From: a virus
Strand: one strand, 5' to 3'
Length of the DNA: 64,000 nt
IMG/VR virus record: IMGVR_UViG_3300037470_001039
Location: 31,572-95,571 of that record
Of the stretch, positions 27,968 to 60,548 are shown piece after piece. The notes below the pieces were generated by a model. That model was not told where the DNA came from. It searched no databases and was given only the letters and a program-made list of their open reading frames with translations. The first letter of the stretch is position 1, and each line of letters begins with the position of its first letter. Made by a program: the position numbers and the translations under genes.

Positions 27968-27995
27968 AGTTCTGACGGGTAGAACGTCGGAGCCC

Positions 27996-30900: not shown

Positions 30901-32264
30901 CCCACAACAGCGTAAACTTCGCGATGGCCTACGGCGGCGGTCCCTCGGCCATCATCCGCGTCATCAAGGGCTGCTCGGAGCAGGAGGCGGCGCGGCACCA
31001 CCGGTCCTTCAACGAGGCCTACTCCACGCTGAAGAACTGGTGGGACGAGGTGAAGACGTTCGGTCGCAAGCGCGGCTACGTCACCACGGCGTTCGGACGT
31101 CACTACCCCATCCCCGACATCCTGCTGCCGACGAAGTTCGGCAAGGTCAAGCAGCAGCTACTCGACGAGTATCCCGAGAAGCTCGCCAGGTGGGAGAAGA
31201 AGTACGAGGCCGCGAGGACGCCGAAGCAGCAGGCCCATCTGCTCGAGATCAAGCCCGCCCCCCCGACGGACGCGGCCGTCAAGAAGCAGATGGAGATCAA
31301 CCGGAAGTTCAAGGCGAAGGCCGAGCGCAACGCCACGAACGGTCCGATCCAGGGACTCTCCGCCGACATCACCAAGCTGGCGATGGCGCTGATCTACCGC
31401 GAGTGCAAGAAGCGCGGGTGGTTCGAGAAGGTCTACATGATCATCACGATCCATGACGAACTCGTGTTCGAGGTCGAGGACGACATCCTCGCCGACGCCG
31501 TCGAGACGTTCCAGCGCATCATGACGCGGAACAAGACCATCCTGAACATGAAGTGGCCGGTGCCGCTGACGACCGACTGCGAGGTCGGCTTCGACTGGAC
31601 GGTGCCGTGGGACATCAAGGACTTCAAGTACAGGCGCGTGCGCCCCGACGGCTTCCAGACGGACGAGAAGGGACGGCTGTTCCGCGACAAGGAGACGGGC
31701 GAGCTCAAGGCCAAGCGGTGGCCCGAGAAGTTCGTGAAAATCTTCGGGCCGGCCTACGGCTTCGCCCCGGTCGTCGAGAACCTGACCGAGGAAGAGGGTC
31801 GCAAGTTCTTCGGAGCCGAGTGGAAGCCGCTCACGGAGGCTCCCACGGAGCCCACGGCTCCCGTTCAGGCCCCCGGGCCCTCTCCGGCCCCACAGACGGC
31901 ACAGGAGACTCCAGAGACGGCCCAGAAGGCTCCACAGGCCGTCCCGGCCGAGGAGATGTCTGAGGAGGCCGCCTCGACACCGAATTCTCCTGCGGCGCCC
32001 TCCAAGGCCCCTGCGGCGCCGACGACGTCTCATCGACCCTCCGCCTCGACTCTCAAGCAGGGGGAGGTTTTCGAGTACCGTCTGCGCGAGCTGGGCATCG
32101 GCGTGGCGGACAAGCTCGCGCACGTCATCGTGCACTGTCGCGGCCGCGGATCGCATCCTCTGCGCATCGTCGGGCCGAGCGGCGAGCGGTTGCCTTGGCC
32201 CGACGCGAGTATCATGGTGAACGATGTCGAGTTCCTCCACATCGCGGGGCACTACGGGATCTGA
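27996..32264 (+). CDS. polA: family A DNA polymerase with 3'-5' exonuclease and intein
   Basis: DLETTG and HNAKFD (exonuclease), TDTGRF, DCGGVELR (motif A), RQEAK/SVNFAMAYG (motif B), NGPIQG and IHDELV (motif C). Confidence 0.93.
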   Translation: MNFLESFEDATRPDIPKKPWFDEVSMGLVDSIEMLNRVVDECIETGRYGLDLETTGLDNRVFDGETKDKIVGFCLAPDGKRGYYAPLRHQKGEEHNLPIQAAYACIRRLVEADSVAVFHNAKFDHEFLQFPGGEGIGMWDDPKTFDDTNLLGWLRNTRDKNLNLKHMSANELGKEMVELEDLFGKDHQDKLDFSELDPSWEPCIWYTCSDAICTLLLYEKVHPEVVAPDGKRSLGQEVIYNLEKMTLPATRWMERARLWVDQERVAELMQLGQVELFQAMCDIYDFCNEALGSKRPLDRDEHGNTHPGTVEPGWFRVLRKKFVPDNPDYDINKQIEDCRQEAKRKNMDDLDAKGHYFKLDVPEGDPDHGSPQKYDILSRQQLGPLFEELRIPDLNRTAKSDQVQTTQAEIEWLDEKHGHKYPFLPKIKRLGELQKALGTYLISLHRDVGPDGTLRANYKQMGTDTGRFTTPSSKNPEEDGGTKFPIHGAPATYDKKRPQCLLGIRSAFRARPGRTMVAIDCGGVELRIATIYSGEPKWLREYFRCSSCGNEFEAGDGTITPEAPPAYCPKCGDDRIGDLHTLTGITFFGEDKVGTKQWKQMRQEAKCVHPDTLVLTPSGLERIGAKFEFGKRDEFLDVENPEDAAIWNGDAMQPVKASYNGGSKKLFHVVTHRGIVTCSDKHRFKLKNGRLMSIEKGLAEGVGLVLPNVPRMPVFRGWKQIQYRAGEDVPPTYIALGPDLAYFAGVYLGDGMKRGGWSVGISHGHVEKTDKMGIPYAEWQDHLVALCEELQFRPVRRKQSVYLGSRKVIGFLGALGLVGDDEKRRLRVPDWVLQGGQLSALQFLGGLIDTDGTVDKEDAEIAITTKDAVFGGQLMALLRALGFMPRMEPCWNKTYKRWYYRLHIRASEALRLKDVIRHRGKVDRLRKAKLGTKEPENQVLAIIPAGRQPCVDVSMKGREHLYWCNGLITHNSVNFAMAYGGGPSAIIRVIKGCSEQEAARHHRSFNEAYSTLKNWWDEVKTFGRKRGYVTTAFGRHYPIPDILLPTKFGKVKQQLLDEYPEKLARWEKKYEAARTPKQQAHLLEIKPAPPTDAAVKKQMEINRKFKAKAERNATNGPIQGLSADITKLAMALIYRECKKRGWFEKVYMIITIHDELVFEVEDDILADAVETFQRIMTRNKTILNMKWPVPLTTDCEVGFDWTVPWDIKDFKYRRVRPDGFQTDEKGRLFRDKETGELKAKRWPEKFVKIFGPAYGFAPVVENLTEEEGRKFFGAEWKPLTEAPTEPTAPVQAPGPSPAPQTAQETPETAQKAPQAVPAEEMSEEAASTPNSPAAPSKAPAAPTTSHRPSASTLKQGEVFEYRLRELGIGVADKLAHVIVHCRGRGSHPLRIVGPSGERLPWPDASIMVNDVEFLHIAGHYGI
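29814..30908 (+). mobile_element. intein with LAGLIDADG endonuclease in polymerase motif B
   Basis: EAK|CVHPDT...CNGLITHN|SVNF, with FAGVYLGDG and FLGGLIDTDG blocks. Confidence 0.92.
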
Positions 32265-38209: not shown

Positions 38210-38565
38210 CTACCACAGCTCGCGCAGGTTCCCCCTGAGGTAGCTCTTGGCCGAGGTGCAGCGTCCCGTCTGGTGGTCCGTGACGATGTCGCGCTGCAGC
38301 GCCACCGTCCGCACCTTGTCGCTGCGCATCCCGGAGCCTACCTGCTGTCTCCTGCGGGCGTTCCGGTCCTTGGTCGCCCTCTCGGTCCCCGCTTCCTTGA
38401 GGCGCGCCCTGAGGACGCCTAGGGCGGTCTCGCGCCTCGACGACCTCGTGGTCAAAGACCCTCCAAGGTCAGGAACTTGACGTAGATCTTGTACTGCTTG
38501 GTGACGAGGAGCTTCGCGTCTGTGCCGCCTTCTCCACTTCTGATTTCGACGATTACCGTTTCCAT
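38210..38565 (-). pseudogene. class I peptide release factor homolog with prfB-type frameshift site and deleted GGQ core
   Basis: METVIVEIRSGEGGTDAKLL...EGL-TGA, then the C-terminal RRQQVGSGMRSDKVRT...VTDHQTG. The central domains are absent. Confidence 0.8.
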
Positions 38566-38578
38566 TGGATTGACTCCT

Positions 38579-39544
38579 TCAGATCCTGAGTTTTCGGCAA
38601 GCCCAGCCACCCCATCCGGGGGACATCTGAAAATGCGCAGAAAGACGACTTTGTGTCCATCCTTGAGCCCGAAGATCTCGTAGTTCGTGTTCGACTTTGG
38701 AGATCTTCGAGAGGGCTTGGGGCTTGATGTCGATCTTGCCTGTGAAACAGGGGGGACAGTAGGGGCCGATCAGGGCAACCAGTTGAGTACGGTCGCGCTG
38801 CTGGTAGATACCAATCGTGAATTGTCCCGGCCGTCGCTCTCGTTGGGTAGTGGACCATCCGTACAGTGTTTTAAGTCGGAAGCGCAGCCGCGCAACCTCC
38901 TCTTCGGCGAAGCCATCGGTGTGGAAAAGCATTCCGTACCCATCGTCCACCGTCGCTCCGTCTCCCCAGTACCAATGAGCCAAGGCACGTGGAGAAAGTC
39001 GCACATCGCTGGGCACGTGTTTGTCTCCGTAGGGGTACCAGCGGGCCCGCTGTTCCGTGAACGGTTTGTACTTGCGGGTGCGGAGGATTGCGGACCGCTT
39101 GCCTTTCACGGCACGTCCGTGAAGGAGACCGACACGGGGCTTTCGGTATCCGCGGCTTACGGAAATTCCGATATGGGAAAAATCTTGCTCCACGCTGTCG
39201 AGCCACGGCTCGTGCCGTACTGTTTGTTCAAGTCCCAAGCGGCCTTCGCTAGTCCCGTTTACCTCGATCCACGCATCTCCCAAGAGAAGGCCGTCCACGA
39301 GTTCTAGGAACGCCTCCGTAACTTGGAACGTCTTCCTGGTGCGCAGTGCCGTTGCCTCAACCGCGTCCCGCGTTGTTATCCCCATGGAACCCCGGCTTGT
39401 CCCGAACTGCCGTGCCAGTTGGGCCTCCGATTCCCCGTCCTTGTAGCGACGCAGGATCTCGCGGTCGGGAAGCGCTTTGCGTGGTCGTCCCGTGTGTCCT
39501 CCTTTTGCTGCCCGTAATTTACTCTCTTTCGCGTTCGGGTGCAA
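38579..39544 (-). CDS. free-standing LAGLIDADG homing endonuclease with HTH
   Basis: VDGLLLGDAWI and ALAHWYWGDG motifs. Lower GC3 than neighbours. Confidence 0.85.
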   Translation of the reverse strand: MHPNAKESKLRAAKGGHTGRPRKALPDREILRRYKDGESEAQLARQFGTSRGSMGITTRDAVEATALRTRKTFQVTEAFLELVDGLLLGDAWIEVNGTSEGRLGLEQTVRHEPWLDSVEQDFSHIGISVSRGYRKPRVGLLHGRAVKGKRSAILRTRKYKPFTEQRARWYPYGDKHVPSDVRLSPRALAHWYWGDGATVDDGYGMLFHTDGFAEEEVARLRFRLKTLYGWSTTQRERRPGQFTIGIYQQRDRTQLVALIGPYCPPCFTGKIDIKPQALSKISKVEHELRDLRAQGWTQSRLSAHFQMSPGWGGWACRKLRI

Positions 39545-44718: not shown

Positions 44719-44795
44719 GGTGCCCAGGGAATGGGTTTGAACCATCGACGCACGGGGGTTTAGACCCGCCGCTCTACCAACTGAGCTACCTGGGC
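44719..44795 (-). tRNA. atypical tRNA, anticodon undetermined (possibly CTA)
   Basis: Good acceptor, D and T arms. The anticodon region GCGGG-TCTAAACC-CCCGT is irregular. Confidence 0.6.
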
Positions 44796-47216: not shown

Positions 47217-47827
47217 CGCGGTAGCCCGTCCATAGGTTCCTCTCTCCGTGGGGTGGGAATCCGCGATTTCGGTGAACGCGGCCGTCGCTGTGCTCTCGTG
47301 TAGGTCGGAGCCAGCAGTCGTCGGGCCCGAGCCTGAGGATCCGTGCCCCGAGGTGTCGTGCCCGGTTCCCGAGGTGTAGCAGGTCGTCGACTCGCTTGAG
47401 TACCGGAAGGCCAAGTACCACGTCCTGACGATCAGGAACGCGCGTCTCAAGGAAATGGACGAGTGCGAGGCGAAGGGGAACAGCTACGTGGACTGTCCGC
47501 ACTAGGTCTTCGGTTACCTGTTTTTGGACGGCACGCTTACTCCGTGAGCCGGTAGGTCGCTCGCGGACGGCAGCGCCACATGATCTCGCGCTGCAGGTGG
47601 CGCCGGCTTTGTCGGTCGAAGCACACGGGGCACGGAGTCGAGCGCCCCGCGTAGAGGTGGATGACGAGCTCGTCCTTGCACCGCTAGTATGGGGGTTTGG
47701 GGATCTCGAACTGCCTGTCTTCTTCGTTCATGGTCCCGGAAAGATTCGACCCCGGGCGTTGCTCTTGAGCGCCGCCCGGGGTCGTGAAAAGTTGATCGAC
47801 GCCGAGTGAATCACCTTTGCGTTTTGA

Positions 47828-47938
47828 AACGCCAGATTTATATGTCTGGTGGCTTTACCAATTTGCCTACCTGCCCGCAGTGGAGGGCAGGGTTGGACTC
47901 GAACCAACAAGTGCTTGTGAGGTAGTTCTGCGGGCGTC
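47828..47938 (-). ncRNA. circularly permuted tRNA-like RNA (YrlA/Y RNA-like topology)
   Basis: T-arm and 3' acceptor strand CCTGCCC precede an 8-nt loop, then GGGCAGG and a D-arm. Confidence 0.6.
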
Positions 47939-47982
47939 GATCGAAAAGTTAAGAGGCAGCCGAGTAGAGAGGCTGGTTTTGT

Positions 47983-48054
47983 TGCAAGGACTGGATTCAA
48001 ACCAGTGACCTTCGGCTTGCGATGCCGACGCTCAACCAACTGAGCTGTCTTTGC
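47983..48054 (-). tRNA. degenerate tRNA, CGC (Ala) anticodon
   Basis: D, anticodon (AT-CGC-AA) and T stems pair. The T-loop is TTTGAAT and the acceptor stem is imperfect. Confidence 0.5.
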
Positions 48055-48282
48055 TTGTGAGCCTGACCGTGGAGTTGAACCAGGATTGCGTGTGGACCTT
48101 CAACGATTGCTCCTGTGAAGGAGCGAGTGGTGTGGTGGGTTTGTACCCATTTATCGTCGGGTCCGCCAGATTGTGAAGGGTAGTTCCGAGTACGCGGTCT
48201 GGGAGGGCTTCCAAGGTCCCGGTCACTCTCGGACCGGGGTTGTGCTTGTGAGACCGCGCTGGTGGAACAGCCTTGGAATGGG

Positions 48283-48310
48283 ACGATACTGAATTCCAGA
48301 TGAACGTCAA
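48283..48310 (-). promoter_or_regulatory. sigma70-like promoter for the ncRNA region
   Basis: TTGACG-16 nt-TATCGT. Confidence 0.5.
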
Positions 48311-48319
48311 GAATTTTCT

Positions 48320-48553
48320 TCAATAAATTTTAGGCGCTGAGGGCGCACGAAAACCCGGTATATAGTCGGGGAACCTCTCATGACGGGTTGCAGGGTCCAG
48401 ACGTTCAGGTATTTTGCGGCTTTCGGCGATGATTTCGTAGTAGCTGCCGCATTCAGGGCACTCGAACAGATCGGACTGCCGTTCCGAGTTCGTGGCCAGG
48501 ATGCCCCTGTACCTGTAGAGGTGCAGAGGGTACTTGCACGTATGGCATTCCAT
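48320..48553 (-). CDS. putative Rhs immunity protein (zinc ribbon)
   Basis: TGATG-coupled to the Rhs stop. CHTC...CPECG, 77 aa. Confidence 0.6.
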   Translation of the reverse strand: MECHTCKYPLHLYRYRGILATNSERQSDLFECPECGSYYEIIAESRKIPERLDPATRHERFPDYIPGFRAPSAPKIY

Positions 48554-51500
48554 CAGAACTTCCGGATAGGGATCCATGTCCCGTCGTCATCCACTTCAAA
48601 CAGAACCGACCCTGGAGGCATTGGATTCCCTCCAGGGGTGACAACCTCTCGAGTGGGATTCATCAGGTATGTGTCACCAGGCAAACGCACAGCGGTGTGC
48701 CCCCCCGGCAGGAAATTCGGGTTCCCATCCGCGTCAGGTTTAACAGGGAGACGGGTGGGTACGCTGGATGATGGCACGGATACCCCAAAGACGTGATCTC
48801 CATTTACAAAGGCATCCTTGACCGAAGGGGCCATGCCTGCATGCCGAGCGGCATCACCAGCGCTGACCACTTTACGAGCATCTTCGAGTGGCGTGAGCCA
48901 CGAGAGACCATTAGGGGCTCCAAGCAGAGCATCCGGTTTGTCAATGAATCGTAAAGATCCTCGGCCGAAGAAGGTAACGAGATAGTCGTCGGAGGTTAAT
49001 CCAAAGGGGTCGATTTCTCTGAGAGGATCACGGCAGTAGGCGTACAGGCGAACACCACCCATCAATCCGAAAGGATCGCGGCTGATGTACGATTGCGTGG
49101 TTGGATCATAGTAACGATGGCCGTTATAGTAGAGGTTGGTTTCTTCGTCGAAATATTGACCCGAGAACCCCCACGAAAATGGTTTGCTAGAAGCGTCGTT
49201 GCGTTGCTGCCAAAGTACCTGGGCATCCGAACCTACAACAAGCAATGGCTTGTCTACGTGGTCCGTGAAGATATTCTGTGCCCCAGAAGGGCTTAGTTTG
49301 GCGAAGGGGGTGTAGTGGCCGGGTTCAAACACCCACGTGTTGAGTGAATTTTGGTCACCACGAATGACGATTTCGTGAATCGGGTAGACCCCGGACCATT
49401 GCCACGTAACAACTCCTCCGCTCGTCTGTTTCTGCACCCGGCGCCCCAAGGCGTCGTAGAGAAACGAAACCTCTTCTCCGTCAGGTTTCGTGACCCGAGA
49501 GAGACGTCCCGCGGCACTCCAGTGGTAATGCCACTCGCGGCCATCAGGTTCTTGGCGCCGAACCAGATTGCCTTCGGCATCGTAGTGAAATAGGCGCTTC
49601 CCTTCTGGGATGTGCTCGACTAGCACATTTCCCGTATTGCCAAAAAACCGATCGGACAACTCCGGTGTGCAAAAGAGATTTCCGGCCTTGTCGGGGCAGC
49701 GATATTCCACATTACCATCGGGAAATGTGGTGGCCGTCAGATAGCCTCTACCATCATGTTGGTAGCGCAGGGTGCCGTGTCCCGAATCTTGGATCTCGTC
49801 AAGTTGCTTTGGAGAACTCCAATCATAGTGACGATTCCGAAGGAGAGTATCGTCGTGGAGGATTTGATGTTGAAGAGGAGTGCCTCCAACGTCTCGCCAC
49901 CAATGAGAGCAACTTCCTCCAGTAACACTTCGATCGATCTCACAACCGAGAGCGTCGCGACTCATCTGTGCTCGCCAAGACTGGTCATCCTGCTTGGCAA
50001 ACATGCTGGATACGTGGCCGTGGGTATCACGTGCAAAAGACTGGTGGGCCCCCAAAGAGGTTGCCAGTCCAGCTCGTAGCCCACGGTAGTCGTAGTGCGA
50101 GGAGATCCAGTGGTCGTCTCTCCCTTCTTTTAACACACGGCCGAACGCGTCGCGTTCGAACCTCACTGTGGTCGTCTCGTTGGTAGCCTCGAGCAACGCA
50201 CCTTCGAGATCGTAGGTGAAAAGTTCCGTGGTGCCGTCGTAGTGCTCCACCTTGATTGGGCGCCCCGAGGTGTCGTAGTCAAACGACGAAAAACGACCCC
50301 CACCAGGTCGTGATACCTTCAGAATACGACCCGCAGCATCGCGATCGTACCTTCTGGTAGTTCCATCGTAGGCAACTTCTTTCCGCACGCTGCCTACAGC
50401 ATCTCGATTAAATTGATAAGAAAACCCCTGCTCGTTAATGAATGCGATGAGGCGCTCTTCCGTGTCGTACTGGAAGAGAACATGACTCCCGGCACTCTTT
50501 TTCCAAGCAACGCGACCGAGACCTTGGTATCCTATCTGCACGTCGTACGTATTGTGACGGGCACGGATCACGTTGCCCTCGGCATCGTACGAAAATTCCC
50601 GAACTTCTCCTTCAGGGCTCCACACACGAACTACTTGTCCGAGGGCGTCGTACTGACGGTATCGGATGCCTCCTGCCGGATTGGTAGCCTCGATCATTTG
50701 CCCACGGGCGTCGTAACTCCAAGTCCTCCGAGTGTTGTCGGGATGGTTCATTTGCACGAGGTTTCCCGCATTGTCGTACTGGAAGTGCGTGCGTGCCCCA
50801 GCGGGATCCTCAAGGGTCACGAGGTGCCCGTGCTCGTAGGTGTATCGCGTACAGGCTCCGAGCGGATTCGTCTCGGATACCCGTCGCCCCCAGCGATCAT
50901 ACGCCCAGCGCCACACCGCCCCCATAGGTGTCGTCAGGGATACCGGGTTATCATGCTTGTCGTAGGCAACCTTCGTCACGCCACCACCCGGATCAATGAC
51001 GGAGGTCCGGTTGCTGCGGTCATCGTAGGTGTAACGGGTAGTATTGCCTACAGGGTCGATGGCCGACGTTTTTCGGGTCAGTCCATCGTACTCGAACTGG
51101 GTCACACCTCCACGAGCATCGACGATCTTCGTGACGGTGCCGTGCTCTCCCCACTCGTACACCGTGGCGTGGCCGAGCGAATCCTCCACGATCGTCCGTC
51201 GACCCTTGATGTCGTAGGTGATCTCGTGGTCGTGGATCTGCCCGTCGCCCCACGTTCGCTTGCAGCGGGCCAGCGGTCCCCAGCCGTCGTACACGAAGTA
51301 GAAGCTCAGTCCGTTGCGATCGGTCTCCTTGACCAGGTTGTGATGGTCGTAGGCAAATCGGATGGGCTTGCCCATCGCGTCCTGCGTTTCGACGAGGTCC
51401 CCCTGCGGCGAGTATAGAAAGCGCGCGTGCTGTCGCCAGCCTTCGCCATTGGCCGCCGGCAGCCAGATGTACTCGAGCCGACCGTCGCGATCGTGCTCGA

Positions 51501-52641
51501 ACTTGATCGACCGCCCGCCGCTGTCGACGACCTCGGCCAGGCGCGCGCGGTCGTCGTACCGCAGCGTGATGGCATCCCCTCCGCGGTTGCGGATCCGAGT
51601 GAGCCTGGCCATGCCGCGGTCGCGGTTCTCGGTCGTCTCTCCGCGAATCGGTCCGAACTCATGGATGAGACCGCCGGGTGCCTCCACCTCCCAGCGGAAC
51701 GCGCCGAGCGAGCGCAGGGTCAGGCGGCTGATCGGATCGAAGATCTCGTCACCCTCGCGCATCACGTGCTTGGGCAGCGCGAACGTGTCGAACTCCAGCT
51801 CGCGCCCGTCGTCGGTCAGGTACACGACGGTATCGGGTTCCATCCACAGGCGTTGATCGAGGCTGTGGGACCAGCCATATCCAAGCACCGAATCACGATC
51901 GCAGAAGCTCGAGCGGTAGCGACGGGAGAACGACAGCGGGATCGGTCCGGGCAGTTCGAAGTCCGACCACGTGGTGAACATGCTGCCGTTGACCACGTTG
52001 ACAGGGTGCCCCGTAACGAAACAGGCGGCACGATGGAGAAAGTCTCGGGCGCGCTTCCAGTTCTTGGGCACGAACCGCTCGATACCCGCGTGGGCCAGCT
52101 TGGACAGAGTCTTGGTGCGCAGCGCCCGGAAGCCCGCCGCGAACGCGACGGCAACCCAGTCCACCGCAGTGGGACCACCAACCATCACGTTGGCGGGGCC
52201 GCCCGAGGAGACGACGAACGACGTTGGCAGCCGCACCGGGTCGGAGCACGACAGCGCAGGATCCCCGAGCCGCACGGCCTTGCCGCCACGCATCTCCACG
52301 GTCTTGGACCCGAAGACTAGCAACGCGTCACCTGGTGGAGGCGCCGGTGGGAACCAACTCACGCCGGGAGGGATGAGGAGATGCCCTGTGGGCATCTTGG
52401 CTTCGTCCCCTGTGGCAGTGGCAATCTTACCGTTGATCAGGACGGGTCCCGTGGTCCGGGGCGTCTCCGTTGCCCAGGCCACCGTGGAGCTAATCATCTC
52501 ATCCACCACGAGCCCCACAGGGTCAAACACCACTCCGACGAACGGATGTGGGAATGGCACGGGTGCGGGAGAGGGAGGCACCACCTCGTAGTGGAGGTCT
52601 AGTCCCACGACAAGATCAAACCATGTGCTCGCTTGTGCCAT
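48553..52641 (-). CDS. rhs: Rhs/YD-repeat polymorphic toxin with PAAR-like N-terminus
   Basis: GHPVNVVNG (DUF6531-like), many YD repeats, GQYFDEETNLYYNGHRYYDP...DPFGL core end and a C-terminal toxin domain of about 147 aa. Confidence 0.92.
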   Translation of the reverse strand: MAQASTWFDLVVGLDLHYEVVPPSPAPVPFPHPFVGVVFDPVGLVVDEMISSTVAWATETPRTTGPVLINGKIATATGDEAKMPTGHLLIPPGVSWFPPAPPPGDALLVFGSKTVEMRGGKAVRLGDPALSCSDPVRLPTSFVVSSGGPANVMVGGPTAVDWVAVAFAAGFRALRTKTLSKLAHAGIERFVPKNWKRARDFLHRAACFVTGHPVNVVNGSMFTTWSDFELPGPIPLSFSRRYRSSFCDRDSVLGYGWSHSLDQRLWMEPDTVVYLTDDGRELEFDTFALPKHVMREGDEIFDPISRLTLRSLGAFRWEVEAPGGLIHEFGPIRGETTENRDRGMARLTRIRNRGGDAITLRYDDRARLAEVVDSGGRSIKFEHDRDGRLEYIWLPAANGEGWRQHARFLYSPQGDLVETQDAMGKPIRFAYDHHNLVKETDRNGLSFYFVYDGWGPLARCKRTWGDGQIHDHEITYDIKGRRTIVEDSLGHATVYEWGEHGTVTKIVDARGGVTQFEYDGLTRKTSAIDPVGNTTRYTYDDRSNRTSVIDPGGGVTKVAYDKHDNPVSLTTPMGAVWRWAYDRWGRRVSETNPLGACTRYTYEHGHLVTLEDPAGARTHFQYDNAGNLVQMNHPDNTRRTWSYDARGQMIEATNPAGGIRYRQYDALGQVVRVWSPEGEVREFSYDAEGNVIRARHNTYDVQIGYQGLGRVAWKKSAGSHVLFQYDTEERLIAFINEQGFSYQFNRDAVGSVRKEVAYDGTTRRYDRDAAGRILKVSRPGGGRFSSFDYDTSGRPIKVEHYDGTTELFTYDLEGALLEATNETTTVRFERDAFGRVLKEGRDDHWISSHYDYRGLRAGLATSLGAHQSFARDTHGHVSSMFAKQDDQSWRAQMSRDALGCEIDRSVTGGSCSHWWRDVGGTPLQHQILHDDTLLRNRHYDWSSPKQLDEIQDSGHGTLRYQHDGRGYLTATTFPDGNVEYRCPDKAGNLFCTPELSDRFFGNTGNVLVEHIPEGKRLFHYDAEGNLVRRQEPDGREWHYHWSAAGRLSRVTKPDGEEVSFLYDALGRRVQKQTSGGVVTWQWSGVYPIHEIVIRGDQNSLNTWVFEPGHYTPFAKLSPSGAQNIFTDHVDKPLLVVGSDAQVLWQQRNDASSKPFSWGFSGQYFDEETNLYYNGHRYYDPTTQSYISRDPFGLMGGVRLYAYCRDPLREIDPFGLTSDDYLVTFFGRGSLRFIDKPDALLGAPNGLSWLTPLEDARKVVSAGDAARHAGMAPSVKDAFVNGDHVFGVSVPSSSVPTRLPVKPDADGNPNFLPGGHTAVRLPGDTYLMNPTREVVTPGGNPMPPGSVLFEVDDDGTWIPIRKF

Positions 52642-52654
52642 TGTAGTTCTGCTT

Positions 52655-53956
52655 TCAGGATAGGGTCACCCAGAATGCCCAGATTGCGAAGCCAATCGTG
52701 ACTACCCCCGTGAGGAAGCCCATCAACGGCATTGCGGAGACTCTATGCTTCGGAGATTCTCCGAAACCATCCTTGGACTCCGTGATTCCGGTGTCGGTAA
52801 CCTCGACCCTCCATGTCCCTGATTCTTCAGCCGTAGACGGTGCGAGAGCGCGAGAAAGTACTTTGGGAGAAGACACCACCCAGGGGTGTATTGGGCGCCT
52901 ACGTGGTTGTGGAATATCTTGGGAGTCTTCCAAGATTCGCAGGGGAGTGGTCTGCGGCACCTCCTTTGCGCGTGGCAGGAAAACCTGTGTAACGGATTCC
53001 TCGAATCCCCCATTGAGAATAGCAGCGCGGACCATCCTCGTAGACCCCGACATATTAGCCTGCGTTCCGATCTGCGCACAAACCAATTGGCTCAAGGCCT
53101 TTTGCGCAGCTACGACGTCCCCCAGGACATCCAATGCCTCTGTCGAGGTCTGGATGCGGAACTCCATGTCTCGTTGGAGAAGCCCTCTGTGTAGGGCTCG
53201 AAGGTTAGGGGGTACTTCTGGACGCGTGAGTATGGGGGGGGCTTCCTCTGGTATTCTTTCCAAAAGCTCCACGGTGGTCAAGCAGTCCTCTCGGAAACGG
53301 CAGCCTTCGATCATTTCATGCAAAAGCGCCCCTACGGCGAACAGATCGGAGGCAGCTCGAACCTCTCCCGCCACCTGCTCGCGAGAAGCGTAACGAAGCT
53401 TTCCTGCGAAGTATTGCTGGGTCTCTTCGCTGCTCAGGAGCAACGCGACGCCAAAATCCATCAATTTCACTTCGCCGTGGCACGACAGCATTACATTGTG
53501 AGGGGAGATGTCACGGTGAATGATTGGGTGGGGCTGACCTCCAACCACCAAGGTGTGGGCGTGTTGCAACGCCCGAAGTAGGCAGTGCACGATGTAGCCG
53601 ATCACGTCATAGGACAGATACTTCCCGTCAGAGCGCATTGATTTACTCAACTTGAGTAAATCAAGACCATTGATCCACTCCATGGGGATGTACAGTCGAG
53701 AACCATCGGAAGTCCCTCCTGTTGGAAAGAGACGGCAGATATTCTGGTGGCTGAGCAGAAGCGCGAGTCTTTGCTCGTTCCTGAAAAGTTGGACTGAGGT
53801 GGGGTTAACGGCGTTGGGTAGCATCAATTTAACCGCGCAGGGCATCAGCATGTTGTCGTGGCCTGCCCACTGAGCACGGTAGACCTCGGCCATACCTCCC
53901 TTGCCGATCTTTTCCAGAAGGGTGTAAGAACCGATCTGGATAGGGACGTCAGACAT
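52655..53956 (-). CDS. Hanks-type Ser/Thr protein kinase with C-terminal TM helix
   Basis: IGKGGMAEVY, AVK, HRDISPHN, DFG and SDLFAVG motifs. Confidence 0.92.
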   Translation of the reverse strand: MSDVPIQIGSYTLLEKIGKGGMAEVYRAQWAGHDNMLMPCAVKLMLPNAVNPTSVQLFRNEQRLALLLSHQNICRLFPTGGTSDGSRLYIPMEWINGLDLLKLSKSMRSDGKYLSYDVIGYIVHCLLRALQHAHTLVVGGQPHPIIHRDISPHNVMLSCHGEVKLMDFGVALLLSSEETQQYFAGKLRYASREQVAGEVRAASDLFAVGALLHEMIEGCRFREDCLTTVELLERIPEEAPPILTRPEVPPNLRALHRGLLQRDMEFRIQTSTEALDVLGDVVAAQKALSQLVCAQIGTQANMSGSTRMVRAAILNGGFEESVTQVFLPRAKEVPQTTPLRILEDSQDIPQPRRRPIHPWVVSSPKVLSRALAPSTAEESGTWRVEVTDTGITESKDGFGESPKHRVSAMPLMGFLTGVVTIGFAIWAFWVTLS

Positions 53957-55334
53957 GTTTCACCGCCTTCCCTCGGATACCCTTCAAGTCTTCGGGGTCC
54001 CTGACGACAGTATGACCTTTCGACCTCTTCACAGGTACATGGTTGACACCCTCCAGCACGGCAGTCTCGGAAATCTCCTTTGAAGCAGATTCGCTCCACG
54101 CGTGCAGCGATGCCAATTCCGCTGGGGTCATGAGATCGGTGGCTTCTTCCTCGGGGACGACTGCCCGGTGCTTCGTCAAAAGGTTTTGACATTCTTGGAG
54201 GGTTCGTGATCCGTTGAGAGCGGGATCTGCTCGACCACAGATCATGGCGTGAGTCCAGAAAGCGATGGCATGGGACTTCATGCCAAGATCCAGGGCGATA
54301 TTCCCGGAGATCCGGCACGCTTCCGCAGTGAGCGATGGCGCCTCGGTCTTTGCTCGAGAGATGGCATTGGCGAGGACACTCAGGGCAGCGTGCTTGTTTT
54401 TGTAGACGAGATGAGAGGACCCGAGCGCGAGCGCGGCGACCAGGTACAGCGTAGTGTCCCCCTCGGCCGCAGTCAGAGCACGCTCGTAGCTGGAGAGGGC
54501 TTGGGTTTTGGTGCCAATATTCATGAGGTGGCTCCCCAACACAATCTCCGTCAACACCTTTTGAGGAAGGGATCCTTCACGCCGGGCTTTATCCCGTGCG
54601 GCACATAGATGCCGAATCGTCTCCGCCCCCTCTCTCTCCATCATTGCCGTGATGCTCAGAAGAGAAGGATCGTCCTCCTGGTTTGGTGGCGGTGCTAACC
54701 CTTTTCGAGGAGGGATAGAAATGTCGCCTTGAGCTCCCACGGGAAAAAACCTCATTGGAGGCGCGCTCTTGGGGCCTCCCTCCGACGAAGTTGGCACCAC
54801 GACTAAGGTGGGCACATCAAGACTTTGTCGGGTCTGCACTGGAGAAGCGACTGATTCCAAGAGGAGCCATCGCACTGAACGCAAGAGGGTGCTGTTGATG
54901 AAATGCTTCAACGCGCTTAACCACGGCAATTCAAGAGAATTGCTGTCCAGCGCAAGAGCGATCAGAATTTCGCATTCCCTATTTGGGCGCGCGTGGACGA
55001 GCTGGCCCAATTGCTCCGCAAAAAGCACAAGCCCCTCACCCACGGGCGCCTCAGGGAGAGGGGGCCACCCGTCAGAAACGGAAGTTTCTTGCCAGTTGAG
55101 ATACTTTTCACGAATAGAGTCTCGTCCTGAGACCCACGGATCACCACCTTGAGTTTGAAGTAGAAGGAGAGGGCCTCGGGCTTCGGGACGGCAAGATAGC
55201 ACTGTCACAATACGAAGCACACCTTTTTGAGCGAGGGCGGGGGCTTGAACATGGAGCAGCCGATATGTGGGGTCACGCAGAAAGCGTACCCCACTTACCT
55301 GTAGCACCACGAGGAAGTTTTTCAGGTCCTCCAT
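53949..55334 (-). CDS. hypothetical protein with TPR-like C-terminal half (possible effector adaptor)
   Basis: 461 aa, tightly coupled between vgrG and the kinase, with helical Ala/Leu repeats. Confidence 0.65.
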   Translation of the reverse strand: MEDLKNFLVVLQVSGVRFLRDPTYRLLHVQAPALAQKGVLRIVTVLSCRPEARGPLLLLQTQGGDPWVSGRDSIREKYLNWQETSVSDGWPPLPEAPVGEGLVLFAEQLGQLVHARPNRECEILIALALDSNSLELPWLSALKHFINSTLLRSVRWLLLESVASPVQTRQSLDVPTLVVVPTSSEGGPKSAPPMRFFPVGAQGDISIPPRKGLAPPPNQEDDPSLLSITAMMEREGAETIRHLCAARDKARREGSLPQKVLTEIVLGSHLMNIGTKTQALSSYERALTAAEGDTTLYLVAALALGSSHLVYKNKHAALSVLANAISRAKTEAPSLTAEACRISGNIALDLGMKSHAIAFWTHAMICGRADPALNGSRTLQECQNLLTKHRAVVPEEEATDLMTPAELASLHAWSESASKEISETAVLEGVNHVPVKRSKGHTVVRDPEDLKGIRGKAVKHV

Positions 55335-55335
55335 C

Positions 55336-57648
55336 TCAGTTGATCTTCACGAGCGGCGCCGTGATGGTGGTGAGCGTTTGCCCGGCGACATCCACGTTGC
55401 CCCCACTCAACGAAATTTGCTGAGTCGCGGAACACAGCATTTTGTCGCAAAGCGACTTAATGCTTTCCGCATCCAAGGTAATGTCCTCCGTCATGGTGAG
55501 AGCCCCTCCGTCGCTCATCACCGTGACCTGGTTGCCTTGAAGCGTAGCGTCGGAATTGAGCAGGAGTGACGCACCCGACGCCCCGTCTCCAGGAGCCGAG
55601 GCCCTCACCTCCGCCTCCCCCGTCAACTTAACCACGCTCCCTGCCTTGCTATGGAGTCGTGCCGTGTTGTCCAGTGTCAGCCACGCAGGCCCTGTAGACT
55701 GCATGGTGGCGTGCCCTTCGTCGTCGAGATGCACGAACGCGCCGGGCTTGGACTTGAGCAGTGCCAAGACATCGAGGATCGCGTGGGCGCCGTTGCCCGC
55801 CTGGAGCGTGATTCGGTTCGGCGTCAGTTCTACGTAGGTCTCGCCGCACCGCAGCCGGATCGAGGACTTGGCCTCGACGAGCGCATCGTGCTCGGCTCGC
55901 ATGGAATAGTCTCCATCGACCTCGATCCCGTAGTGCGGTGAGGCGAGGGCCTCGCCCTCGTGCCCTTTGCCGTTGACCGTGAGCAGCTGGTTCCCCTCCA
56001 CGGCCACGGTGCGCCCTCCTGCCACGCTCACGGCCTCATCGTTGCCGACGCTGCGGCTGCGATCGTGCTGCACGGTCTCGCTGTAGTCCCGCTGGGCGCG
56101 GAGCATGACCTGCTCTGCGCCCGCCGCGTCCTCGAAGCACAGCTCGTTGTAGCCGTCGCCTCCGGGCGTGCTCCTCGTGCGAAACGCGGTCTTGGTCCGC
56201 CCTTCGGGCAGGGGGTACGGCGCGGCGTTCTGGCCGTTGAACACGCAGCCGGTACATAGCGGGCGGTCGGGGTCGCCGTCGAGGAACGAGACGATCACCT
56301 CCATCCCGATCCGTGGGATGAACACCGAGCCCCACCCGGGGCCGGCCCAGGTCTGTGCCACGCGTACCCAGCACGACGCATCTTCGTCGTGTGTCGTGCT
56401 GCGGTCCCAGTGGAAGCGGACCTTGATCCGGCCGTGCTCGTCGGTGTGGATCTCCTCACCTTCGGGGCCCACGACTACCGCGGTCTGTGGACCGTGGATC
56501 AAGGGCTTGGTCGATCGCCCCGGGCAACGGTAGGTCACCTCGGCGGGGAGGCACGTGAAGTCGTTGTCGTAGGTGGGTGCCGCCGCTTGGGTGCCGTCGT
56601 GAACGTCGACCTCGGGGGCGTCGCCGCGATGCTCGACACGCGTGATGAGGTAGCGTCCGTCATGGTCGGAGTCGAGCAACTCAAAGACGCAGCCAGGCGC
56701 GAACGAGACCACGTTGCCGGCCCCCTCGAGTACGTCCTCGCCGGACGCGAGCGCTTCCTGGTCGCGAGCGGCGATGTCCGCCGTGTCCAGGTTCCACAAT
56801 CGTCGCCCACCGTGCTCGATGACGACGAGATCCGAATCGTCGCGCGCGGGGGCGGAATCCTCGTACACGCGTGCCGGGTTCGTGGCCCAGTCCCAGTTGC
56901 GATGCACGATCGTCGGGCCCGCGGTCCGTCCACGACGCGCGATGGACCGGATGCTCTCGGCCTCGGCTTCGTCGTGGCGATCGACGACAAGTCGCACCTC
57001 GGCCCCGCCCGCCCATGCTTCGAGATCCCGGGCACCATCGCCACCATCGGTCACGACCGTCGCCTCGCGCTGTTGGTCGTCGTGGTCGAAGCGGTACGAC
57101 AGCCCTTCTTCGTCGAGCAGGCGATGCAAGAATGCCAGATCGCTCTCCTGGTACTGCACGCAGTAGTCCCGAGGTGTGAATCCCCGCCCCACCGCTGAGA
57201 GGTCGAACTCGCGGTCGCGCTCCGTGAGCGTCGGACCCGCGAGATCTTCGACGACCTCGAGGACCGTCATCCGCTGGAAGATCCTCGAGCCTCGGCCCCG
57301 AGCCAGCAGTGCCAGTGCGGGTCCGAAGCGGAGAACCAGCCGCGTATGGTCCCCCCGTCCGTCGCGTACCTCCACTTCCTGGACGATCCCCGAGACGACG
57401 CGCTCGACATCGCCGCGGTGGATCCTAAGGCTCAGCTCGACCCCCACCAAGTCGCTGCCCTCCACGTCCGCGTCTTCACAGATCACCTCGATCTCGCCAC
57501 GGTAGGGCTCTCCCAATGCCTCAGTGAGCCGAAAACTCCGTACTCTCCACGGCCGATCGTCGCACTCAAAGGTGTAGCGAACAACCGGAAGGGGGCTCGG
57601 CGTACCTGATGAGGAAGCTGCTTGGAAGTCCATGTTTCGTTCAAGCAT
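55336..57648 (-). CDS. vgrG: type VI secretion spike protein VgrG
   Basis: YCVQYQESDLAFLHRLL, GPQTAVVVGPEGEEIHTDEHGRIKVRFHWDR, PRIGMEV and GDPDRP motifs, then a gp5-like beta-repeat C-terminus. Confidence 0.95.
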   Translation of the reverse strand: MLERNMDFQAASSSGTPSPLPVVRYTFECDDRPWRVRSFRLTEALGEPYRGEIEVICEDADVEGSDLVGVELSLRIHRGDVERVVSGIVQEVEVRDGRGDHTRLVLRFGPALALLARGRGSRIFQRMTVLEVVEDLAGPTLTERDREFDLSAVGRGFTPRDYCVQYQESDLAFLHRLLDEEGLSYRFDHDDQQREATVVTDGGDGARDLEAWAGGAEVRLVVDRHDEAEAESIRSIARRGRTAGPTIVHRNWDWATNPARVYEDSAPARDDSDLVVIEHGGRRLWNLDTADIAARDQEALASGEDVLEGAGNVVSFAPGCVFELLDSDHDGRYLITRVEHRGDAPEVDVHDGTQAAAPTYDNDFTCLPAEVTYRCPGRSTKPLIHGPQTAVVVGPEGEEIHTDEHGRIKVRFHWDRSTTHDEDASCWVRVAQTWAGPGWGSVFIPRIGMEVIVSFLDGDPDRPLCTGCVFNGQNAAPYPLPEGRTKTAFRTRSTPGGDGYNELCFEDAAGAEQVMLRAQRDYSETVQHDRSRSVGNDEAVSVAGGRTVAVEGNQLLTVNGKGHEGEALASPHYGIEVDGDYSMRAEHDALVEAKSSIRLRCGETYVELTPNRITLQAGNGAHAILDVLALLKSKPGAFVHLDDEGHATMQSTGPAWLTLDNTARLHSKAGSVVKLTGEAEVRASAPGDGASGASLLLNSDATLQGNQVTVMSDGGALTMTEDITLDAESIKSLCDKMLCSATQQISLSGGNVDVAGQTLTTITAPLVKIN

Positions 57649-57778
57649 CTTTCAGGGTCCCCTACCTTCTACCGGAAAAACCGTCAGAAGAAGGGGGAAG
57701 TCGACAACAAGCCATTGGGCCGTCTTGAACGAGGTTTGGATGAAAACTCCTCTGATCCCGCGTCAAACGCGTGGAGGC

Positions 57779-58360
57779 CTACGTCAAGAGATGTAGGGCG
57801 TTCGGGGCGATATGGTAGCTGGTCTTGCGGTCTTCCTTGATGAATGACTGCACCGCGTAGGCCAGGTACGAGCTCACGATCTGGATGAAGGGGAGGAATT
57901 CACCCTCCTCGCAGGTCGCGGCCCCGGCACCGGACTCGTCATCGATGACGAAGTGCTCGTCCCACACGACGCGCCCGAATCCCCCGTCTGCCGCCAAGGC
58001 CCCGTGGATGCACGGAACCTTGTTGGCTCGAGCGAATGCCTGGACCACGCGTCGCGCCTCCCCGTTGTCGAGGCAGTCGACCAGGAGGTCGGCGCCCCCG
58101 AGAAGTTGCGCGTCGTTGTCGGCCGTGAGCTTGTTGCCGACGGCCTCGATCTTGCGGCCGTAACAGAACTGCATGGCCTGCTTGAGGGCCTCGGTCTTCT
58201 TCTTGCCCACGCTGTTCTTGAAGTGGAACTGCGAGGCCACGTTCTTCATCTCGACCCTGTCGAAATCCACGACCTTGAGCTCGACGTCTTCGTTGCGCAG
58301 GGCCTGCACGAGGTGGGAGCCGAGCGCGCCGGCTCCGATGATGGTGATCTTCTTGCTCAT
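57779..58360 (-). CDS. ThiF/MoeB (E1-like) adenylyltransferase
   Basis: IIGAGALGS, VDFDRVEMKN and DCLDN..AR motifs. Confidence 0.85.
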   Translation of the reverse strand: MSKKITIIGAGALGSHLVQALRNEDVELKVVDFDRVEMKNVASQFHFKNSVGKKKTEALKQAMQFCYGRKIEAVGNKLTADNDAQLLGGADLLVDCLDNGEARRVVQAFARANKVPCIHGALAADGGFGRVVWDEHFVIDDESGAGAATCEEGEFLPFIQIVSSYLAYAVQSFIKEDRKTSYHIAPNALHLLT

Positions 58361-58731
58361 GGTCTGTCCAGCGCCTCTGGCGTGGCGTCGCGGATGTTGA
58401 GGGTGTCGTGGGTGTCGGGAGGATAGGTGCCGTGCTCGTCCCTCCCCTCTTTCCAGTCGAGGACGAGGTCGTCCGGGTGTTCGAGGTCGAGGTCCAAGGT
58501 CACGTCCCGGAAGTTGCGAGGTTCGCCGCGGACGTGGAGGTACGAGCGGCCACCGTCTACGGAGATGGTCTCGCACGGGCACGAGTGCATGTCGTGGTGC
58601 GCGCGGCTCACGATGACGTGCTTGCACCGCAGGCACAGGACGCCCGTGACCGTGATCACCGCCAGTTCCTCAAGGAGCTGCTGGTCGCCGGTGATCCCCG
58701 CGTGCCCGGTGATCCCCGCGTGCCCGGTCAA
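58357..58731 (-). CDS. small zinc-binding phage protein
   Basis: CLRC...SCPC...VDGG motif, with an in-frame 18-bp repeat (ITGHAG) at the N-terminus. Confidence 0.6.
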   Translation of the reverse strand: MTGHAGITGHAGITGDQQLLEELAVITVTGVLCLRCKHVIVSRAHHDMHSCPCETISVDGGRSYLHVRGEPRNFRDVTLDLDLEHPDDLVLDWKEGRDEHGTYPPDTHDTLNIRDATPEALDRP

Positions 58732-59449: not shown

Positions 59450-59529
59450 TGGTAGCGGGGGTGGGATTCGAACCCACGAAATCTCCGGGTTATGAGCCCG
59501 GCGCCTTAACCTGACTTGGCTACCCCGCA
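59450..59529 (-). tRNA. tRNA-Met(CAT), initiator-like
   Basis: 1:72 mismatch, three G-C pairs in the anticodon stem, encoded CCA. Confidence 0.85.
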
Positions 59530-59533
59530 GCAG

Positions 59534-59605
59534 TTGCGATGGAGAGAATCGAACTCTCGACCTGCCGGTTATGAGCTGGCTGCTCTACCACTGAGCTACA
59601 TCGCA
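59534..59605 (-). tRNA. tRNA with CAT anticodon (elongator Met or Ile2)
   Basis: Cloverleaf with loop CT-CAT-AA. Confidence 0.85.
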
Positions 59606-59619
59606 AAACCTGTCGTTTG

Positions 59620-59694
59620 GGTGGGCCTGGGAGGAATCGAACCTCCGACCTCCGTGTTATCAGCACGGCGCTCTTACCCCTGAGCTACAGACCC
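59620..59694 (-). tRNA. tRNA-Ile(GAT)
   Basis: Loop CT-GAT-AA. Confidence 0.92.
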
Positions 59695-59699
59695 TCGCT

Positions 59700-59774
59700 T
59701 GGTAGTCCCGGGCGGGTTCGAACCGCCGCCCCCCACCGTGTCAAGGTGATGCTCTCCCTCTGAGCTACGGGACT
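59700..59774 (-). tRNA. tRNA-Val(GAC)
   Basis: Loop TT-GAC-AC and encoded CCA. Confidence 0.9.
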
Positions 59775-59779
59775 GTGCT

Positions 59780-59855
59780 TGGTAGGCCCAGAGGGACTCG
59801 AACCCTCGACCTTCTCCGTGTAAAGGAGTTGCTCTTACCGCTGAGCTACGGGCCT
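59780..59855 (-). tRNA. tRNA-Val(TAC)
   Basis: Loop TT-TAC-AC and encoded CCA. Confidence 0.9.
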
Positions 59856-59897
59856 TTGAAGTCGGGGCGTCCTGAGCCGGACTAGACCAACGCCCCA

Positions 59898-59973
59898 TGG
59901 CGGAGCAGACGGGACTTGAACCCGCGACCTTCCGGTTGACAACCGGGTGCGCTACCAACTGCGCCACTGCTCC
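59898..59973 (-). tRNA. tRNA-Asp(GTC)
   Basis: Loop TT-GTC-AA, G73 and encoded CCA. Confidence 0.92.
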
Positions 59974-60032
59974 GTAGCTATCGTCGGCATCATCGTCGTC
60001 TTCCATGAGGCTTCTCCTTTCTTCGTCTCGAG

Positions 60033-60105
60033 TGGGTGCCGACCCCGGGGCTCGAACCCGGCCCTTCCCCGCGACTAGCGGGGGCTCCCCTGGGAGCTTG
60101 TCGGC
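60033..60105 (-). tRNA. atypical tRNA with AGT (Thr) anticodon
   Basis: Short D-arm, loop CT-AGT-CG, good T-arm. Confidence 0.5.
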
Positions 60106-60117
60106 ATGTTGTTGGCG

Positions 60118-60161
60118 TGGTGGTGGTGGTGGTGGTGGTGGTGGTGGTGGTGGTGGTGGTG
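60118..60161. repeat. (TGG)14 microsatellite
   Basis: Read directly from the sequence. Confidence 0.9.
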
Positions 60162-60271
60162 TAAAGTTGGGCTGTTGTCTCCCCCAGGCCGCCCGGTCGC
60201 CTGGCATTACATCCTCGGATTGCGTCGCCCCTCGAGCTCGCGCTCGACGAGTACCTGGGATGCCGCGTTAG

Positions 60272-60343
60272 AGCTGCCGGTGGGAATTGAACCCACGACC
60301 TCGAACTTACCAAACTCGCGCTCTACCCCTGAGCCACGGCAGC
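60272..60343 (-). tRNA. tRNA-Thr(GGT)
   Basis: Loop TT-GGT-AA. Confidence 0.85.
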
Positions 60344-60363
60344 GTGTGTTGTTGAAGATGCTC

Positions 60364-60438
60364 GGAGCCCAGGGTCGGGATCGAACCGAACGACCTGCTC
60401 ATTACGAGTGAGCTGCTCTGCCACTGAGCTACCTGGGC
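60364..60438 (-). tRNA. tRNA-Thr(CGT)
   Basis: Loop CT-CGT-AA. Confidence 0.88.
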
Positions 60439-60472
60439 CTGCTGTTGGTGTTCTCCTGGTGAAGTTCGTCTC

Positions 60473-60548
60473 GGAGCCCGTCGAGGGACTCGAACCCCCA
60501 ACCCCTCGGGTACAAACCGAGTACTCTAGCCGATTGAGCTAGACGGGC
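60473..60548 (-). tRNA. tRNA-Thr(TGT)
   Basis: Loop TT-TGT-AC. Confidence 0.88.

Follow-up and report, generated by a model that had tools for sequence, protein, structure and literature searches.

We analysed a 64-kb window (64,000 nucleotides, G000:C1:31572-95571), which makes up the last 64 kb of the 95,571-bp viral record IMGVR_UViG_3300037470_001039 of IMG/VR, and in particular a cassette of five genes that resembles an auxiliary type VI secretion system (T6SS) effector island. A preliminary description of this DNA had reported five tightly packed, co-oriented genes encoding VgrG, a tetratricopeptide repeat (TPR)-like protein, a Ser/Thr kinase, an Rhs toxin and an immunity protein. Open reading frame (ORF) listing and family scans confirmed the five genes and their packing, all of them being on the minus strand. 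The cassette, its genes and the two ends of the Rhs protein are the following (positions are those of the window):

48320-57648, minus strand: the cassette of five genes
55336-57648, minus strand: vgrG, encoding the T6SS spike protein TssI (770 aa), composed of gp27-like hub, gp5 OB domain and beta-helix
53949-55334, minus strand: TPR-like accessory gene (461 aa), without Pfam or NCBIfam family
52655-53956, minus strand: Hanks-type Ser/Thr kinase (433 aa; Pkinase, E 6e-30)
48553-52641, minus strand: Rhs polymorphic toxin (1362 aa; RHS_repeat, 1e-79; DUF6531, 1e-26)
52012-52641, minus strand: N-terminal 210 aa of Rhs, candidate PAAR-like spike tip, with weak matches only
48556-48990, minus strand: toxin domain, C-terminal 145 aa of Rhs, with a predicted fold like that of ADP-ribosyltransferases (ART) and NADases and without Pfam family
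48320-48577, minus strand: candidate immunity ORF (85 aa), with a CxxC...CxxC pattern and weak zinc-ribbon matches

The genes succeed each other in the order vgrG, TPR-like gene, Ser/Thr kinase gene, rhs and small ORF. The spacing was 1 nt between vgrG and the TPR-like gene, -8 nt between the latter and the kinase gene, and 13 nt between the kinase gene and rhs, while the rhs stop and the small ORF start were joined by a TGATG overlap (ATG at 48551-48553). All five reading frames were intact and tightly coupled across 9.3 kb, and open under the standard code. Promoter and terminator scans of the cassette found sites no more frequently than in shuffled sequences. The lower GC content previously noticed at 48.3-51.1 kb and 52.6-55.3 kb proved to be real (0.53-0.57, the value for the 64-kb window being 0.635). 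More precisely, vgrG and codons 1-400 of rhs had a GC content of 65-66% and a GC content at third codon positions of 0.80, resembling the phage backbone, and the helper gene (as we call the TPR-like gene), the kinase gene, the remainder of rhs and the small ORF had 54-57%. The break was therefore inside rhs, its first 400 codons (51442-52641) being similar to vgrG (65%) and the rest (48553-51441) similar to the helper and kinase genes (56%). Because of this internal break, we consider the cassette to be a recombinant of at least two sources.

The domain content of VgrG (Phage_GPD, residues 42-343, 5e-57; Phage_base_V, residues 402-470; Gp5_trimer_C, residues 488-562) is that of a T6SS spike protein. 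It scored 490.6 bits with TIGR03361, the NCBIfam model of the T6SS tip (cut-off 186.35), and 334 bits with TIGR01646 (cut-off 121.8). The cassette protein thus shares with T6SS VgrG/TssI both the hub/OB/beta-helix architecture and a TIGR03361 score above the cut-off. The earlier claim that the locus is an orphan T6SS-type vgrG/Rhs module is supported. Its top database matches were the metagenome proteins P0007, P0008 and P0009 (70%, 63% and 60% identity), followed by proteins from Myxococcales and Nannocystaceae metagenome-assembled genomes (MAGs) at about 50% identity and lower. We also scanned 185,579 species genomes for bacterial counterparts and kept the best 80 loci. Nearly all of these carried Myxococcota or Deltaproteobacteria labels, and most belonged to Nannocystaceae.

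A phylogeny of VgrG, which the preliminary description had proposed as a check, pointed in the same direction. In a FastTree tree of 121 sequences, from which the phage gp27-gp5 hubs were left out, the phage VgrG grouped with P0007, this pair was joined by P0008/P0009, and these in turn by a Myxococcales MAG (locus L013), with a Shimodaira-Hasegawa-like support of 100 in each case. The whole group was nested within a Nannocystales-rich clade of Myxococcota, which argues for a myxobacterial T6SS ancestry. Of 2.9 million IMG/VR contigs covered by a pattern scan, only ten had a T6SS-type VgrG. All ten were of 63 kb or less, and their VgrGs were placed elsewhere in the tree, away from the phage VgrG. 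When viral contigs were scanned with VgrG as a single protein, no match was obtained, and a metagenome scan with the alignment of the VgrG sub-clade yielded no relative above 43% identity.

The Rhs protein consists of a candidate PAAR-like N-terminus, DUF6531, a YD shell, an Rhs-associated core and the 145-aa toxin, in that order. The core (Rhs_assc_core, TIGR03696) covers residues 1152-1215 and ends with ...SRDPFGL...EIDPFGL, after which 145 residues remain. These are the features of T6SS Rhs effectors, i.e. a YD-repeat shell, a core with a DPxGL self-cleavage motif and a variable C-terminal toxin. Residues 1-1217 were 55% identical to the Rhs protein encoded beside the closest bacterial vgrG, in L013. 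This closest bacterial Rhs (L013:4644-8762) ends in another tip, which matches Fic/DOC weakly, and is followed by a 105-aa ORF; the presence of two tips on a like shell illustrates toxin-tip swapping. The N-terminus was conserved across the bacterial homologues, and gave weak matches to PAAR profiles (phrog_281, E 4.6e-4; PAAR_motif, E 0.024, which misses the cut-off) and to two PAAR proteins, Tas1 (E 0.05) and 4jiv (E 0.2). An AlphaFold2 model of this part, built on six sequences, was unusable (predicted local distance difference test score, pLDDT, of 39.5).

The toxin domain belongs to a family for which we found about 200 representative homologues (clusters at 50% identity, E up to 0.001). 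It was nearly always C-terminal, in proteins of 87 to 4281 aa. Several of these were of the Rhs type, including one encoded by a Blastocatellia MAG, and others had different polymorphic toxin scaffolds. The motifs ATLG, MP.ED, TG.APS, GG.TAV and TRE were conserved, and the invariant residues were glutamate 115 of the domain (in the motif T-R-E) and one glycine. An AlphaFold2 model built on 40 relatives had a pLDDT of 95.4. When this model was submitted to Foldseek, only chains of Streptococcus pyogenes NAD+ glycohydrolase (SPN) came near 0.8 (probability 0.80-0.85, E 0.13). VIA-align also ranked SPN first, with a Z score in the middling range (6.9), and Tne2 second (Z 5.5); further matches were Scabin, TreX, EcPltA, Tre23, TreTu, DarT and the pertussis and cholera-like toxins. 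Of the 30 best structural matches, about three quarters were ART-fold or NAD-utilising enzymes. The toxin also had an Atlas look-alike score of 0.92 to TNT-domain clusters, which we take as a lead only. Pfam assigned no family to any of 40 members of the toxin family, none of which matched TNT (PF14021) or another ART family at E values up to 1, and a profile search of PDB sequences with the toxin gave a chance-level match only.

Because the list of structural matches is consistent and the Atlas lead points to TNT, our best guess is that the toxin consumes NAD or ADP-ribosylates a target, although the Z scores are middling. The predicted fold is similar to those of the ART-fold NAD toxins SPN, Tne2/TNT, TreX, TreTu and Tre23 (Z 6.9, 5.5, 5.3, 4.5 and 4.5, respectively), the cassette domain shares with the Rhs ADP-ribosyltransferases TreX, TreTu and Tre23 its position at the C-terminus of an Rhs protein, and an invariant glutamate is present. 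It differs from all of these toxins in that it has no detectable membership of their families by sequence, its likeness being known from a predicted fold, which does not tell an NADase from a transferase. A search of 401 sampled Myxococcota genomes with the toxin profile, run without a positive control, gave no match. Together with the GC break in rhs, this fits a replacement of the tip by recombination.

The small ORF after rhs is probably of 77 rather than 85 codons, starting at the ATG of the TGATG overlap with the rhs stop, and its 3' end runs into the junction sequence described below. Among 5.8 billion proteins it had no homologue. By its position and translational coupling, it is a candidate immunity gene for the cassette toxin.

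The name given to the second gene is weakly supported. The Pfam TPR signal of its product is weak (E 0.02-0.14), and the ESM Atlas gave a score of 0.97 to Myxococcota clusters annotated as 'tetratricopeptide repeat protein'. A search of 5.8 billion proteins yielded one homologue only, from a Nannocystaceae MAG (36% identity). With tblastn, homologues were found directly downstream of vgrG in L013, L019, L034, L039, L042 and L085; in L016, about 0.8 kb separated the homologue from the upstream vgrG. The protein presumably acts as an adaptor or chaperone for VgrG and Rhs. It is distinct from the helpers of other auxiliary T6SS islands, being TPR-like and family-less and not a member of DUF4123, DUF1795 or DUF2169.

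The kinase has intact motifs (G-loop GKGGMAEV, AVK, HRD..N and DFG) and ends in a C-terminal hydrophobic helix, with nothing after it and no sensor domain. Its C-terminal 162 aa matched no family, and its sequence similarity to bacterial Ser/Thr kinases was generic. Like the T6SS kinase PpkA, it is a Hanks-type kinase with a membrane anchor in a T6SS gene set, but it differs from this type in the lack of a periplasmic sensor domain after the hydrophobic helix. No Fha or PppA partner was noted among the annotated genes of the window, which were not searched by family for these proteins.

In the bacterial loci, the kinase gene was never found between the helper gene and rhs. In L048, a Pkinase gene (L048:2242-3150) comes directly after vgrG and overlaps its stop by 4 nt, and in L064 (L064:2485-5505) vgrG is followed by a gene for a 1006-aa kinase-TPR fusion. 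Three kinase genes in a row were observed just upstream of vgrG in L019 (L019:2494-9235). Since in some loci of Myxococcota the gene right after vgrG encodes a kinase or a kinase-TPR protein, the kinase of the cassette is not an oddity of the phage. The separate TPR-like and kinase genes of the phage may represent such a kinase-TPR pair in split form. The repeated association of vgrG with kinase and TPR genes in Myxococcota has no described role. We also looked for an enrichment of kinase genes near vgrG in the 80 loci, but it did not clearly exceed the kinase density of myxobacterial genomes, which is high, and only the adjacent genes of L048 and L064 were used.

The arrangement of the cassette has counterparts in bacteria. 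In L039, L042 and L085, tblastn detected an Rhs homologue after vgrG and the TPR-like homologue, and L013 was the best bacterial match for all three proteins (50% identity for VgrG, 29% for the helper and 55% for residues 1-1217 of Rhs). A TssC sheath gene was present in all five genomes with a homologous island that were tested. By these homologies vgrG, the TPR-like gene and rhs are of Myxococcota ancestry. The ancestry of vgrG and the occurrence of the order vgrG, TPR-like gene, rhs in bacteria indicate that the cargo corresponds to a Myxococcota-type auxiliary T6SS island. The cassette has in common with the auxiliary vgrG-adaptor-Rhs/PAAR islands of Myxococcota the succession of vgrG, helper, Rhs toxin and small downstream ORF, and it differs from them in its location in a huge phage and in the kinase gene placed between helper and rhs.

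The surrounding DNA is that of a phage. The contig codes for a DNA polymerase, a DnaB-like helicase, several DNA methyltransferases, a holin-like domain and several very large family-less proteins, and, at its 5' end, for a baseplate wedge (G000:634-4182, in the tail module of the contig and outside the window). The DNA polymerase was 47% identical to its counterpart in a 485-kb uncultured phage. CheckV estimated the completeness of the viral record at 18%, and from its 95,571 bp we therefore deduced a phage genome of about 0.5 Mb. The ThiF-like gene which flanks the cassette upstream of vgrG had homologues of 46-79% identity in ten IMG/VR records, those at 65-79% identity being records of 619, 497, 372, 213 and 147 kb. 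Four of the five larger relatives encode a wedge protein of 52-74% identity, and the distance between the wedge and ThiF-like genes was similar, about 85 kb in the contig and about 78 kb in the 619-kb phage.

We set the boundaries of the insertion by tblastn of all the ORFs of the window against the corresponding loci of the relatives and by DNA alignments. The features concerned, and the tRNA clusters reported previously on either side of the cassette, which we found again, are the following:

57779-58636, minus strand: ThiF-like phage gene, the flank upstream of vgrG
57781-57789, minus strand: upstream junction, TCTTGACGT, overlapping the end of the ThiF-like gene (last codons and TAG stop)
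48304-48312, minus strand: downstream junction, a second TCTTGACGT, within a promoter-like TTGACG-16-TATCGT
47731-48303, minus strand: conserved, apparently non-coding flank, which comes directly after the ThiF-like gene in L002 and L006
44719-45441: cluster of 3 tRNA genes, on one side of the cassette
59450-60548: cluster of 10 tRNA genes, on the other side

In L002 and L006, from two related phages, no more than about 60-90 bp separate the ThiF-like gene from a following homologue of the segment that runs from 48319 down to 47731 in the window; in L002, a haloperoxidase-like gene and a tRNA region come next. An insert of about 9.5 kb (about 48313-57780) is thus without counterpart in these relatives. 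Homology to the related phages stops at the upstream junction (57781-57789) and picks up again at about 48319-48330, from where it runs downward. The 9-mer TCTTGACGT occurs in exactly two copies in the 64-kb window, one at each junction. A longer duplication at the junctions was rejected, because local alignment left only the 9-nt core and 33 of 1000 shuffles scored equally high. At the same place, right after the ThiF-like gene, L005 contains a paralogue (L005:10623-11336) of the window gene 38579-39544. Because L005 holds a different gene there, the insertion site appears to be naturally variable, i.e. a hot spot for cargo exchange. The island is inserted in a variable intergenic spot, in a tRNA-rich accessory region of a conserved huge-phage backbone.

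As had been proposed, we searched the related phage contigs for the cassette. Neither Phage_GPD (PF05954) nor RHS repeats were found in five related phage records, and five further related records gave no VgrG match, so that VgrG was absent from all ten. The single origin of the cassette from one metagenome-assembled contig, its absence from the relatives, the two segments that differ from the backbone in GC content, and the fact that homologues of its genes, where there are any, are bacterial and in no case from phages, are all compatible with an assembly artefact, in which 9.5 kb of the chromosome of a co-occurring myxobacterium would have been spliced into the phage contig. Such an event would have required two precise misjoins in one intergenic spacer, at junctions which share only 9 nt. 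Assembler k-mers are normally longer than this. Furthermore, both flanks are collinear with the relatives for tens of kilobases, the other cargo found at the same spot in L005 speaks for a natural variable site, and vgrG and the 5' end of rhs match the GC content of the phage. We therefore regard an artefact as quite unlikely. The concern, raised with the first description, that the cassette might lie at a join with a host chromosome was likewise answered by the collinearity of the two flanks with related huge phages (213-619 kb), which places it inside the backbone.

Some other features of the backbone were observed in the course of this work. Residues 742-959 of the helicase (4949-9094, plus strand, 1381 aa) match a LAGLIDADG homing endonuclease, and residues 688-977 of the DNA polymerase (27753-32264, plus strand, 1503 aa) match the intein-containing NrdA of ICP1 phages; judging from these matches, both proteins probably contain inteins. 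ARAGORN identified a tRNA with a CUA anticodon (labelled tRNA-Pyl, of the amber-suppressor type) at 44719-44795 on the minus strand, near a release-factor fragment that had been flagged at 38210-38565 in the initial reading of the sequence. This tRNA may point to a reassignment of a stop codon in part of the phage genome.

The preliminary description had left room for another use of the cassette, in which VgrG and Rhs would be mounted on the contractile tail of the phage. They would then be a component of the virion, and the caged toxin would be injected at infection. VgrG is indeed homologous to the gp27-gp5 hub of phages, a baseplate wedge of the myovirus type is encoded on the contig, and most jumbo myoviruses encode PAAR tip proteins, although in the survey of 224 jumbo phages from which this is known these were standalone proteins, not fused to effectors (PMC7824862). 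The related phages share a protein (G005:C1:98132-98335; L095:1357-3204, with homologues in G001, G002 and G003) of about 820 aa, which contains an OB domain of the gp5 type and was always encoded about 19 kb from the baseplate wedge gene. It is probably the central spike of this lineage, and its gene would fall just beyond the 5' end of our contig. This conserved protein, which the relatives retain, bears no similarity to the cassette VgrG, which is nested among bacterial T6SS VgrGs, and the cassette is missing in ten of ten related records. The cassette is also about 76 kb away from the wedge gene, among tRNA and auxiliary genes, and a toxin attacking NAD would, if injected into the phage's own host, be expected to harm replication. 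Mounting on the phage's own tail is thus disfavoured, and we consider it very unlikely.

The explanation that we favour, and hold to be reasonably probable, is that the cassette is an acquired auxiliary T6SS effector island of myxobacterial origin, carried by a phage of about 0.5 Mb and used through the T6SS of the host. In an infected cell, the VgrG trimer would bind Rhs with the help of the TPR-like protein; the N-terminus of Rhs would form a PAAR-like tip and its YD shell would enclose the self-cleaved toxin. The loaded spike would then be mounted on the baseplate of the host's own T6SS and fired into neighbouring bacteria, where the toxin would use up NAD(P)+ or ADP-ribosylate a target with it, while the product of the small zinc-ribbon ORF would shield the carriers of the phage. 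The most speculative step is that of the membrane-anchored kinase, which may activate the apparatus of the host in the manner of PpkA in Pseudomonas. The phage would in this way arm the T6SS of its host, and carriers would kill uninfected siblings, as the preliminary description had suggested. The latter had also stated that the window lacks sheath, Hcp and baseplate genes of a T6SS. For the sheath (PF05943), this was found to hold for the entire 95.6-kb contig; Hcp and the T6SS baseplate were not searched for by family.

Several points weigh against use through the host T6SS. The cassette is known from the sequence of one metagenome-assembled contig alone, its low-GC segments mark it as a mosaic, and the PAAR identity of the Rhs N-terminus is weakly indicated by the profile matches. 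In addition, the toxin family was not found in the 401 sampled Myxococcota genomes, the immunity candidate is an orphan ORF, and the benefit of killing neighbours is not obvious for a huge phage that is presumably lytic. A variant of the scheme, in which a lytic huge phage takes over the T6SS of its myxobacterial host during infection and provides spike, helper and caged NAD-targeting toxin itself, the membrane-anchored kinase forces firing, and the infected cells kill neighbours that lack the antidote, seems possible to us but doubtful.

The cassette could also be inert or selfish, i.e. a passenger without a role, or an intracellular toxin-antidote module, serving addiction or exclusion, that operates without a T6SS. 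The confinement of the island to one phage, its mosaic GC content, the failure to find a T6SS sheath gene on the contig and the orphan immunity candidate with a 3' end running into the junction sequence would all agree with this. An intracellular toxin-antidote pair needs, however, neither a full vgrG nor a helper; the cassette has five intact, tightly coupled reading frames over 9.3 kb, and its complete delivery set matches functional bacterial islands. We find inert or selfish cargo unlikely for these reasons.

Use of the cassette through the host T6SS would have precedents in smaller elements. Polymorphic toxins are known in phages, e.g. the MuF family (PMC5576092), and T6SS effector modules have been described in temperate phages of Burkholderia gladioli, as a PAAR2-TseV-TsiV cluster (PMC13366799), and in the Aux3 prophage-like element of Vibrio cholerae (bioRxiv 10.1101/868539). 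These are, like the present one, phage-type elements with a cargo of T6SS spike tip, effector and immunity protein that relies on the apparatus of the host. In contrast with these small temperate elements, which carry a PAAR protein and an effector, the cassette described here has a carrier of about 0.5 Mb and encodes a complete VgrG together with helper, kinase and Rhs cage. Thus, T6SS effector modules were known on small temperate phages and prophage-like islands, and what is new is the complete vgrG-helper-kinase-Rhs set in a huge phage.

The analysis provides three testable items, namely a family of T6SS helpers without annotation, the linkage of vgrG to kinase and TPR genes that recurs in Myxococcota, and a toxin family that comprises about 200 clusters and has a predicted NADase/ART-like fold and no Pfam model. 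If the cassette is used, huge phages can change how their hosts fight their neighbours. This would be of greatest relevance in myxobacteria, where contact-dependent killing shapes kin groups.

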